A stretch of 64,000 nucleotides of DNA from Minisyncoccota bacterium (GTDB taxonomy: Bacteria > Patescibacteriota > Minisyncoccia > Phycocordibacterales > UBA9973). Location: positions 14 through 64,013 of the forward strand of contig JAYSVN010000005.1 in NCBI GenBank assembly GCA_043718505.1. Direction: 5' to 3'. The notes beneath the pieces were generated by a model, which saw only the letters and a program-made list of their open reading frames with translations, was not told the origin of the DNA and ran no database searches. Positions 24,225 through 25,587 of the stretch are shown here, one piece after another. Numbering within the stretch: position 1 is the stretch's first letter; each line of letters begins with the position of its first letter. The position numbers and the translations under genes are program-made.

Positions 24225-24330
24225 ATTGGGTGACCGTATTGCACAGCAAACGGTCACCCTACTTATCAAAATCATAATTCCGATTGTGATTTTGCAGGTA
24301 TATAAATGTTCATTCACACTAAAAACTATG
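24225..24330 (+). repeat. Leader module A: attGGGTGACCGT-N12-ACGGTCACCC hairpin, CAAAATCA-N12-TGATTTTG hairpin, GTTCATTCACAC box, then a 5-codon ORF
   Basis: Stems read directly (24228-24259 and 24267-24294). Box at 24308-24319. Confidence 0.5.
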
Positions 24331-24510
24331 GCACATGCAAAATAAACCCACACGTAAACAGTTAAGAGCACAAGCTAGGCAGATATTGAAGGAGAACGGA
24401 TACAACTCAGACGGCAGCCCTAAAGGCAGCATGTCGAGCAGCCAATATTTTTTTGAGAAAAATATTATAGGCACACCGATGGGAAACCGAATGCGGTGAT
24501 TTTCTTTTTT

Positions 24511-24607
24511 ATTGGGTGACCTATCGTCACCCTGATTTTTGAGAACTTGATTTCGATCGAGTTTTCAAAATGAAATTGTTCATTCACATCTAAAAATATA
24601 CATAATG
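24511..24607 (+). repeat. Leader module B: attGGGTGAC-CTATC-GTCACCC hairpin + TGATTTTT, TTTTGAGAAC-N14-GTTTTCAAAA hairpin (contains G.U), GTTCATTCACATCTAAAAATA box, ATG of ORF 24605
   Basis: Stems at 24514-24532 and 24537-24570. G.U at the stem centre means the pairing is only valid in the + strand RNA. Confidence 0.55.
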
Positions 24608-24976
24608 AAAACAAGAGAGAAGTTTAGTAAGGAGGAAGTGATTAACTTCATCAATCGTACAGCACCCAAGTTGGGTTGCGGTGACTTCACGTATTCTCCA
24701 AGTTTTCCTGAAGGGCATGATGATATTTGCCTGGTAACCCGTGCAGTTGAAAATGGTTACTCGTATGGCTACAGTATTATTTACCTGGTATGGAAAAACC
24801 TGAAAGGGGAGATGCAAAAGTATGAATTAGCGGATACACGAAGCACCAAAGATAACTTATATTACAAAAATCTGCGTGTCGAAGGTAGCAACATCAAATT
24901 CGACCTTGAAGTTTCCGGAACCTACAGCGGAAACCCAAGTAAAAAGGTAGTAAGTTTTGATATAAGTAAACTGTAA
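24605..24976 (+). CDS. Small hypothetical protein (123 aa) downstream of leader module B
   Basis: ORF with protein-like composition. No recognised domain. Confidence 0.45.
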   Translation: MKTREKFSKEEVINFINRTAPKLGCGDFTYSPSFPEGHDDICLVTRAVENGYSYGYSIIYLVWKNLKGEMQKYELADTRSTKDNLYYKNLRVEGSNIKFDLEVSGTYSGNPSKKVVSFDISKL

Positions 24977-25019
24977 AAAATTAATCACTCACACCTAAAC
25001 TAAAAAATAATTACACCGC

Positions 25020-25391
25020 ATGAGTTTAACAGTAGTGCTGGTGCCCGAAGACGTAGCAGAAAAACTGCTCCAAGAAAAAGATTATGAAGTCAAAGTTGAA
25101 GGCTGGTCTCGCAAGAGAAAGCTTCATCTGAGAGGACAACGTCTTATCTTGGAAGTCGCCATGAAAGACTGCATGTGTAGTACCTGTATCAGGCGTTTCG
25201 AATCTGTACTCTTTTCAATGAGAGACAGAAACGTTTCGTACGAAGCAGGATCTTGGGACGGAGATTGTTCGATTAAATTTCAGAATCCGGAAGGATTTGT
25301 AGAAGCTGAAATCTGCGATTTTCTTACTGAGCGAATAGGGCTGACGGTTTCGGGCATGAAAGAAGTCCAAACAGAAGAGAGCGAAGGATAG
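25020..25391 (+). CDS. Small hypothetical Cys-containing protein (123 aa)
   Basis: ORF preceded by TCACTCACACCTAAACTAAAAAATAATTACACCGC-ATG, sharing the TCAYTCACAYCTAAA box with modules A and B. Confidence 0.45.
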   Translation: MSLTVVLVPEDVAEKLLQEKDYEVKVEGWSRKRKLHLRGQRLILEVAMKDCMCSTCIRRFESVLFSMRDRNVSYEAGSWDGDCSIKFQNPEGFVEAEICDFLTERIGLTVSGMKEVQTEESEG

Positions 25392-25507
25392 TACCTCTTG
25401 AATTTGGCTAAGCCGCAACCAGTTGGCTTGAAACTGAATCCTGTCGTGAGACGGTGAACTGGAAGTGCTCTGTAGAAACAGCAAGCATGACTCCCGGGCG
25501 AGAGATA

Positions 25508-25587
25508 TTCGTCCTGATTTTTCAGAACTGAACCAGGGTTGAGTTTTGAAAATGAAAAGTGTAGAGTACCTAAAATAATAAAATATG
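25508..25587 (+). repeat. Leader module C: CTGATTTTTCAGAAC-N14-GTTTTGAAAA hairpin, covarying with module B (G-C to C-G) and keeping the same G.U, upstream of ORF 25585
   Basis: Stem at 25519-25552. Position 3 of the stem is C-G here versus G-C in module B. The G.U wobble sits at the same position. Confidence 0.55.

Follow-up and report, generated by a model that had tools for sequence, protein, structure and literature searches.

Between the small genes that follow rsr, the gene of the Ro60 orthologue (TROVE and vWA domains; 22094..23698, + strand), a 64,000-nt stretch, nearly the whole of the 64,088-bp contig JAYSVN010000005.1, from a Minisyncoccota bacterium (candidate phyla radiation [CPR]/Patescibacteria) carries repeated hairpin-bearing sequences; this whole stretch is referred to below as the window. 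The initial annotation had described three such leader modules (A, B, and C) and had read them as a family of cis-regulatory or processing RNA elements, or small RNAs, coupled to the Ro60 locus. The question raised by the locus is what these modules are. By comparison with related loci (labeled L001 to L028, with coordinates after a label belonging to that locus), the modules are found to be a real and selected family of RNA elements, with members from uncultured CPR bacteria, that we take to be a variant of boxA antitermination sites and of intergenic hammerhead-like punctuation. We give about an even chance to the further reading that they act as RNA punctuation in a long operon with much non-coding RNA (ncRNA), where each module would join a hairpin that serves as a 3′ end or as a leaky terminator to a helix and to an antitermination site resembling boxA.

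Two tandem hairpins conserved on the sense strand

The plan is the same in modules A to C, in a fourth one that precedes rsr (module R), and in a hairpin on the 3′ side of rsr. Two tandem hairpins were predicted by folding in every module copy. The first, H1, is a GC-rich stem-loop whose sequence varies and which leads into a U-rich tract; the second, H2, abuts H1 and is long and AU-rich, with one bulged U, a base of the form YUUUAU-CAG / CUG-UAGAGR, and an apical part whose stem and loop differ in both sequence and length (20 to 46 nt). The helices are long and nearly perfect (14 to 30 bp). All of the window modules are on the + strand. In module A, H1 (GGGUGACCG...CGGUCACCC, 24228..24259, from repeat and fold) is joined to H2 at 24260..24300, which was identified by its fold and by a covariance-model match (24259-24301, E-value 0.003). 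Module B has an H1 at 24514..24532 that is terminator-like by terminator scan and fold, with the tail UGAUUUUU, and an H2 (UUUUGAGAAC/GUUUUCAAAA, 24533..24573) recovered by pattern, covariance model, and fold. The same tail follows H1 of module C (GGGCGAG/UUCGUCC, 25496..25514; inverted repeat, terminator scan, and fold), and its H2 (UUUUCAGAAC/GUUUUGAAAA, 25515..25555) was detected by pattern, covariance model (36 bits), and fold. Module R (21914-21989) consists of H1 at 21914..21935 (fold), H2 at 21936..21976 (fold and alignment), which is orthologous to an H2 upstream of rsr in L001, L002, L013, L006, L008, and L018, and a box. The hairpin 3′ of rsr (CUCCA-UUUUUGAGAACA...UGUUCUCAAA-CAG-UGGAG, 23900..23962) has a fold z-score of −8.1 and is conserved in L001 at 7780-7823. 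The sequence features listed in the initial annotation were all recovered at the positions given and its three modules are real; it had, however, overlooked H2 of module A, H1 of module C (the start of which moves from 25508 to 25496), module R, the two-hairpin plan, and the boxA-like GTTCTTT box 3′ of H2 that is the family's most conserved feature.

Several measures set these modules apart from shuffled sequence. The z-scores of all five window modules range from −3.4 to −8.1 against shuffles, and in each the + strand is more stable than the − strand, by 2.5 to 12 kcal/mol. The pattern TTTTSAGAAC-N8-30-GTTYTSAAAA has two matches in the 64-kb window (24537-24570 and 25519-25552; expected 0.00 from 100 shuffles), and GGGTGACC is present in three copies (one in each arm of the A hairpin, one in the 5′ arm of B) compared with 0.67 by chance. 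The half-site ATTTTTGAGAAC does recur in a further hairpin, as had been noted, at 23904-23915 within the hairpin 3′ of rsr. A terminator scan picked out H1 of B (24514-24532, with TGATTTTTGA after it) and of C (25496-25514, with TGATTTTTCA after it), while the U-tracts after H1 are, by fold, weaker in modules A and R.

The family extends well beyond the window. In L001, which is syntenic from rsr to rny, at least nine related modules were found before various small open reading frames (ORFs), non-coding stretches, and rsr. A covariance model of the H2 base, built from twelve seeds with the variable tip replaced by GAAA, yielded new copies in L002, L013, L012/L016, L008/L014/L015, and L018; 32 of its 38 matches are on the rsr strand, mostly adjoining rsr. 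Across 42 modules from 12 CPR genomes, which bear out the proposal of a family of intergenic cis elements, the sense RNA was more stable than the antisense in 40 (mean difference −6.8 kcal/mol, Wilcoxon P-value 5e-8), and G·U pairs numbered 119 in the sense versus 52 in the antisense orientation.

Covariation points the same way. In the alignment fitted to the H2 model, 93.9% of cells were paired versus 40 to 50% with slid partners, 12 of 14 pairs showed compensatory double changes, and the covariation score was 0.76 compared with 0.30 for shuffled and 0.10 to 0.18 for slid-partner controls. An unbiased MAFFT alignment folded with RNAalifold, using 12 copies from seven genomes that included the orthologous site upstream of rsr, gave compensatory changes in 13 of the 17 predicted H2 pairs. 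The G-C to C-G swap between the stems of B and C, with a G·U pair kept in both, was confirmed in the sequence, and the inference of a selected, strand-specific RNA structure drawn from it now extends to many more copies and genomes. Across the family, 16 copies have C-G at the swapped pair, three have G-C, and one has A-U. The wobble had been taken as part of the conserved signature and proves to be tolerated only, being G-C in eight copies, G·U in eight, and A-U in three. A second compensatory change (U-A to C-G), plus a G·U, distinguishes H1 of C (GGGCGAG/TTCGTCC) from that of B (GGGTGAC/GTCACCC). The orthologue of module B in L022, recognized by the order o54, module, o123a (o54 and o123a being small genes of the array), has entirely different H1 and H2 sequences and an unchanged fold. 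Covariation, sense-strand stability, and a fold kept despite sequence change thus indicate that the functional form of H1-H2 is a single-stranded sense molecule, most simply RNA.

A boxA-like box and hammerhead ribozymes in register with H2

In most relatives, a conserved box of the form GTTCTTT(G/A)(A/T)AA is positioned 1 to 6 nt 3′ of H2. In a non-redundant set of 16 sequences, GTTCTTT was found 44 times on the rsr strand versus 11 times on the other at distances of up to 3 kb from rsr, a ratio of about four, with a background of 0.13 to 0.18 per kb; the flanks ((A)AA(A/T)-GTTCTTT-(G/A)(A/T)AA) give an A-rich logo with G or A at position 8. All 14 exact matches to GYTCTTTRANA in the examined loci are on the rsr strand. 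The family box matches the published consensus of boxA, the NusB/S10 site (GYTCTTTAANA; Baniulyte et al., PMC5725501), which is gammaproteobacterial. Outside of rRNA operons, boxA is established for CRISPR arrays and suhB (PMC7665894, PMC5725501). A double-stranded RNA site on NusB-NusE, 5′ of boxA, has also been published and fits the helix upstream of the box, as in most copies either H2 or stem III of a hammerhead ribozyme (see below) ends 1 to 6 nt 5′ of it. In RNA form, GUUCUUUGAAA and GUUCAUUCACA would be the putative NusB-S10 targets. When the literature was searched for a boxA stated outright for Firmicutes or CPR bacteria, it yielded only a standard nested-PCR primer for mycoplasma detection, GTTCTTTGAAAACTGAAT (PMC3019172). 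The family box matches this primer as well. We take the primer site to lie in the 16S-23S spacer, which the paper on the primer does not say, and presume that it represents the rrn boxA of Firmicutes and Mollicutes, for which no paper stating so was found.

The window copies of the box are less regular. The box of module R (GTTCTTTATAT, 21979..21989) matches the consensus at 9 of 11 positions. Modules A (24307..24318) and B (24577..24588) have a degenerate box, TGTTCATTCACA, that is identical in the two; their GTTCATTCACA also agrees at 9 of 11 positions, with the core GTTCATT; no box follows H2 of module C. At the box position of the L022 orthologue of module B, the sequence reads GTTCATTTAAAAA. 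The distance from the box to the next ATG varies from 14 to 138 nt, and boxes also precede non-coding stretches. The best promoter of L022 (5583-5611), analogous to that at 21561 in the window, is followed by a hairpin and then, at about 30 nt, by the box, and in the GC-richer relatives L004 and L012 the box is followed by a structured Shine-Dalgarno leader (GGAG or GAGG) with no −10 element. These positions and the strand bias suggest that the box is part of the sense RNA, downstream of a promoter. The final module of L022, 3′ of the last ORF, retains H1-H2 and has no box, which argues that a module is composed of a 3′ half and a leader half.

At the place of H2, some relatives have a ribozyme. 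Type III hammerheads (Rfam RF00008) were detected as full-length matches with E-values of 2e-6 to 1e-3, all below the gathering score and with the core nucleotides present in the best cases, in distant rsr loci and in the close relatives L002 and L022, all on the gene strand: L004 (802-877, 1834-1888, and ~3960-4014), L021 (6748-6802), L019 (1223-1277), L012 (~745-795 and ~4010-4070), L016 (3625-3700), L002 (7905-7959 and 11355-11410), and L022 (6646-6700). Many have an H1-like hairpin just 5′. In L004, L012, L016, L019, and L021 the hammerhead is 2 to 5 nt upstream of a GTTCTTT box on the same strand; the L022 copy is followed by the box variant ATTCTTTGTAAAA, and the L002 copy examined (7905-7959) has no box after it. 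The orthologous site just upstream of rsr is occupied by H1-H2 in seven genomes and by a hammerhead in two (L004 and L021), and both coexist within one array. As hammerheads stand directly 5′ of the box, the box must be transcribed together with the element preceding it, and H2 and the ribozyme are equivalent in position. Rfam scans of the window, at the gathering threshold and at E-values up to 5, gave terminator-like noise only; no hammerhead was matched, nor were the modules or the Y-RNA-like RNAs described below. Reading B and C as a degenerate hammerhead (CTGAT...GAAA) was rejected, as CUGAUUU has neither G8 nor A9, stem III is absent, and other members have no CUGA. Viral contigs scanned for a hammerhead plus box gave 16 matches, nearly all of them chance occurrences in coding sequence, with no phage link, and a literature search for a link between hammerheads and Ro60 found nothing.

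The positional equivalence with self-cleaving hammerheads may also be taken to mean that the modules serve in processing or stability only, with H1-H2 a substrate of RNase III or RNase Y or a set of protective end hairpins, and the box a site for that nuclease or another RNA-binding protein rather than for Nus factors. The long, nearly perfect helices are in keeping with this idea, as are the boxless H1-H2 after the last ORF of L022 and the presence of an RNase Y gene (rny; 26575-28158, convergent) downstream of the array and as a syntenic neighbor in relatives. We nevertheless consider it unlikely: RNase III or RNase Y sites would not be expected to show a 7-mer that is invariant and agrees exactly with the boxA consensus, and the L022 box that follows a primary promoter has no upstream unit in need of processing.

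Strand-specific hairpins are typical of single-stranded DNA recombination sites too, and the modules could thus be the attC-like or IS200/IS605-like ends of mobile cassettes that surround exchangeable small genes. Gene content between conserved flanks does differ among close relatives, and near-identical module copies occur within single arrays (L001 5305-5346 equals 9612-9653; L022 M3 equals M4). However, no integrase, transposase, or recombinase was among the called genes of the examined loci, the hairpin base (YTTTAT-CAG / CTG-TAGAGR) has no RYYYAAC/GTTRRRY core, and the modules, which match hammerheads in position and strand, precede rsr and ncRNAs that are conserved in place. Recombination sites are therefore, in our estimate, a very improbable explanation.

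The small-gene array, its non-coding RNAs, and its transcription signals

Four small genes on the + strand accompany the window modules. The first, o54 (24335..24499), encodes a small conserved basic protein with the C terminus TPMGNRMR and has tblastn matches in L001, L008, L014, L015, and L022 to L024; it is a candidate RNA-binding or regulatory factor. Its homologues at L001 5060-5221, L022 5683-5850, and L008 ~5036-5161 share the C-terminal TPMGN(R/G), and o54 is a recurrent early gene of such arrays. The conserved proteins of o123a (24605..24976) and o95 (25585..25872) belong to no Pfam family, and o123b (25020..25391) encodes a small Cys-rich protein with homologues that follow a module in L012 and L016. 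While the initial annotation had described the small ORFs as having no detectable homology, homologues of o123a and o95 were identified at 47 to 71% identity. None of the small ORFs resembles another. A gene for a TrmB-family transcription regulator (20190..20942, + strand; Pfam PF01978, E-value 2.4e-16) precedes rsr; it is a conserved neighbor with which such arrays begin, and it also borders the arrays of L002, L022, and L025 to L028. The rsr relatives range from 46 to 76% identity, the closest Ro60 loci being L001 (a Paceibacterota metagenome-assembled genome [MAG], 76%) and L002 (a MAG labeled Saccharibacteria, 73%).

The proposed coupling to the Ro60 locus was found not to be strict. Contigs L022 to L028, with homologues of o54, o123a, and o95, lack rsr even though the TrmB regulator, the array of small genes, and the modules are all present. 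Ro60 and the Y-like RNAs are therefore one optional cargo of a variable array punctuated by modules. The array behaves as a variable island, with a cargo that differs between close relatives, and in L022 (4281-9200) and L025 to L028 the gene order around RNase Y and ClpP differs.

Several ncRNA candidates flank rsr. A conserved ncRNA 3′ of rsr (23706..23830, + strand) contains TTGGCAACAGAA at 23764-23775 and GCCGAAG at 23707-23713, the latter fitting the published bacterial Rsr-binding motif GNCGAAN0-1G; these bacteria probably use it as their Y RNA. Its counterparts (L001 7612-7745, L002 7606-7765, and L013 8595-8760) keep TTGGCAACAGAA invariant and share a conserved helix, UCGGaCCGG/CCGGUUGGCA; the RNA matches nothing in Rfam. 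Upstream of rsr, a second Y-RNA-like candidate with a long stem (21619..21750, + strand) is formed by a 28-nt inverted repeat (21619-21646 with 21723-21750, 86% complementary), with no ORF and no Rfam match. Between rsr and module A, the stretch 23960-24225 (e.g., GAGGACTGCCGACCGAGGTTACTTCG at 24087-24112) is conserved with L001 7825-7950, has no credible ORF, and is likely a further ncRNA; the 125-aa ORF at 23821-24198 is probably spurious. A motif of the form (GTCCAAACAAG...)CTGGCTAAG-hairpin-CTTGAAACTGAA, conserved and without an Rfam match, recurs in the interval that separates a small ORF from the module or hammerhead that comes next in the window (25404-25439), L001 (~8960-9050), L022 (~6545-6625), and L025 (~5155-5260 and ~5760-5850). 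In two distant rsr loci without modules, a tmRNA gene lies just 3′ of rsr on the same strand (L009 9671-10023 and L007 8119-8249).

The enrichment of modules near rsr, on the rsr strand, raises the prospect that their hairpins are Ro60 ligands, that is, Y-RNA-like sites tethering Ro60 to the transcript of its own operon. The 3′ strand of the H2 base, UUGA in many copies, together with the bulged pyrimidine, presumably bears a loose resemblance to the Ro-binding helix of Y RNAs. We regard this explanation as highly unlikely, since the same modules and small genes are found in arrays without rsr, GNCGAAN0-1G is absent from modules A, B, and C and present in the separate RNA at 23707-23713, and no Rfam Y RNA match was obtained.

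Putative transcription signals bound the array. The best sigma-70-like promoter of the locus (TTGACA-17-TATACT with TG, 11 of 12 matches, 21561..21589, + strand) is the proposed operon start, and a strong intrinsic terminator of 10 pairs followed by AUUUUUUU (25890..25913, + strand) is its proposed end. On the minus strand, a promoter TTGACA-17-TAGACT with TG (21416-21388) faces about 400 nt without a long ORF (21000-21416), and this interval between the TrmB terminator and the promoter of the rsr operon may encode a divergent non-coding transcript. A sigma-54 reading of CTGGCA...GTTC upstream of rsr was rejected by eye, as the spacing and GC element do not fit and other copies have no GG.

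The same signals bear on whether each module is instead a terminator-plus-promoter cassette, in which H1 would end the upstream gene, the region that starts with the 3′ arm of H2 and reaches the AT-rich stretch would be a promoter (e.g., TTGTGA-N16/17-TAAAAW, 8 nt before ATG) giving a leaderless mRNA, and the box would be a spacer or operator, possibly bound by TrmB. We hold this to be possible, if doubtful. H1 with UGAUUUUU is terminator-like in B and C; the genome is nearly free of Shine-Dalgarno sequences (4 of 46 long window ORFs) and many genes have a TATAAT-like hexamer 6 to 8 nt before ATG, a hint that this organism uses leaderless mRNAs widely; TAAAAW-N8-ATG ends modules A (as N9), B, C, and L022 M1 to M4, of which M4 is promoter-like (TTGTGA-17-TAAAAT); and TrmB is a constant neighbor of the arrays. 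On the other hand, promoter-like matches were not above the level of shuffles (13 vs. 9.4, and 14 vs. 16.6 in a second scan), and those in the box region were weak only (9 of 12) and again not above shuffles. The TTGA of the H2 3′ arm was rejected as a −35 element, its spacing to any −10 varying from 12 to 23 nt. The variable distance from box to ATG, the boxes before non-coding stretches, and the GC-richer relatives with a Shine-Dalgarno leader and no −10 after the box do not fit such cassettes either; hammerheads 2 to 5 nt 5′ of the box must share its transcript, and the sense-strand excess of G·U and the covariation of H2 would be left unexplained.

Modules as candidate punctuation of a long operon

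According to the reading that we favor, the modules would punctuate one sense transcript running from the promoter at 21561 to the terminator ending at 25913 and comprising Y-RNA-like RNAs, rsr, and four small genes, in the order promoter, Y-like RNA, module R, rsr, Y-like RNAs with the post-rsr hairpin, module A, o54, module B, o123a/o123b, module C, o95, and terminator (25890-25913). A full module would consist of a 3′ half (H1 plus H2) and a 5′-leader half for the next unit, the single-stranded GUUCUUU(G/A)(A/U)AA box. H1 would serve as a leaky intrinsic terminator and/or a protective, stabilizing 3′ hairpin for the upstream unit, and H2 as a processing or structural boundary as well as the helix beside boxA, a task that the type III hammerhead would perform in relatives. 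As a putative boxA, the box would form, with the helix beside it, a NusB-S10 binding site like that of rrn boxB-boxA, and the loading of NusB-S10 would yield a termination-resistant RNA polymerase able to cross the next poorly translated or untranslated stretch. Both Nus binding and processing are thus predicted functions of the modules.

Known systems provide partial likenesses. As in the rrn boxB-boxA system (NusB/NusE-S10, NusA, and NusG; also in CRISPR and suhB), the box matches GYTCTTTAANA on the transcribed strand with a helix directly 5′, and in L022 it comes soon after the main promoter of an operon rich in untranslated RNA. The module box differs in that a locus has five to nine copies, one behind almost every gene, instead of a single copy or two, and in that each follows a terminator-like hairpin near the start codons of small genes; the context, a small-gene array with Ro60 and Y RNA in CPR bacteria, is not a described one, and the window copies are degenerate. 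H1 resembles intrinsic terminators in being a GC-rich stem-loop with a U-rich tract directly after it, passing the scan in B and C, whereas the U-tract of the modules is interrupted and doubles as the 5′ arm of H2. Because selection at the RNA level acts on an H2 or hammerhead 3′ of H1, transcription must pass H1 at least some of the time. The hammerheads of RF00008 between bacterial and phage genes have their likeness in the relatives' copies that take the H2 position between H1 and box on the same strand; the window H1-H2, in contrast, has no CUGANGA and GAA core, matches no ribozyme family, and is accompanied by no hammerhead. Phage T7 early genes carry RNase III processing hairpins between cistrons, which like the modules are repeated, long, bulged, and intercistronic, with conserved shape and varying sequence. 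The modules differ in that a conserved single-stranded box follows and that they belong to a CPR bacterium rather than to a phage.

Some observations weigh against operon punctuation. Efficient suppression of intrinsic terminators is not known for the rrn antitermination complex, so the pairing of H1 with boxA is not self-evidently logical, and a boxA after every gene is an unusual repetition. The box of A and B has the core GTTCATT, with two mismatches to the consensus, and module C has none, which makes the three modules flagged initially the weakest boxA candidates; the antitermination half may have been weakened or lost in the window genome. TAAAAW-N8-ATG could equally be a leaderless promoter and, with so few Shine-Dalgarno sites, weak internal leaderless promoters may exist. 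Modules of this kind are missing from some rsr loci (e.g., L009), and no rRNA gene was found in the window or the examined loci with which to compare the box to the host's own rrn boxA. When NusB was sought among ten mid-size window ORFs, only S12, S7, and UPF0102 were identified. A bolder version, which we think quite unlikely, is that CPR arrays are punctuated operons in which each unit is bounded by an interchangeable hammerhead or H1-H2 and then by a Nus-loading box, with H1-H2 a new dedicated processing signal; at the extreme, H1-H2 would be a self-cleaving motif of a new kind, or would be recognized by a factor that the locus encodes, for example o54.

If operon punctuation is the correct reading, antitermination by Nus factors through boxA would reach a third class of ncRNA-rich operon, after rRNA operons and CRISPR arrays, and would extend to CPR bacteria, which have been little studied. 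As a plain hairpin pair replaces hammerheads at orthologous sites, it would also provide a concrete and testable role for bacterial intergenic hammerheads. Furthermore, H2 together with GTTCTTT would offer a sequence handle by which variable small-gene and Ro60/Y-RNA arrays could be recognized in metagenomes.

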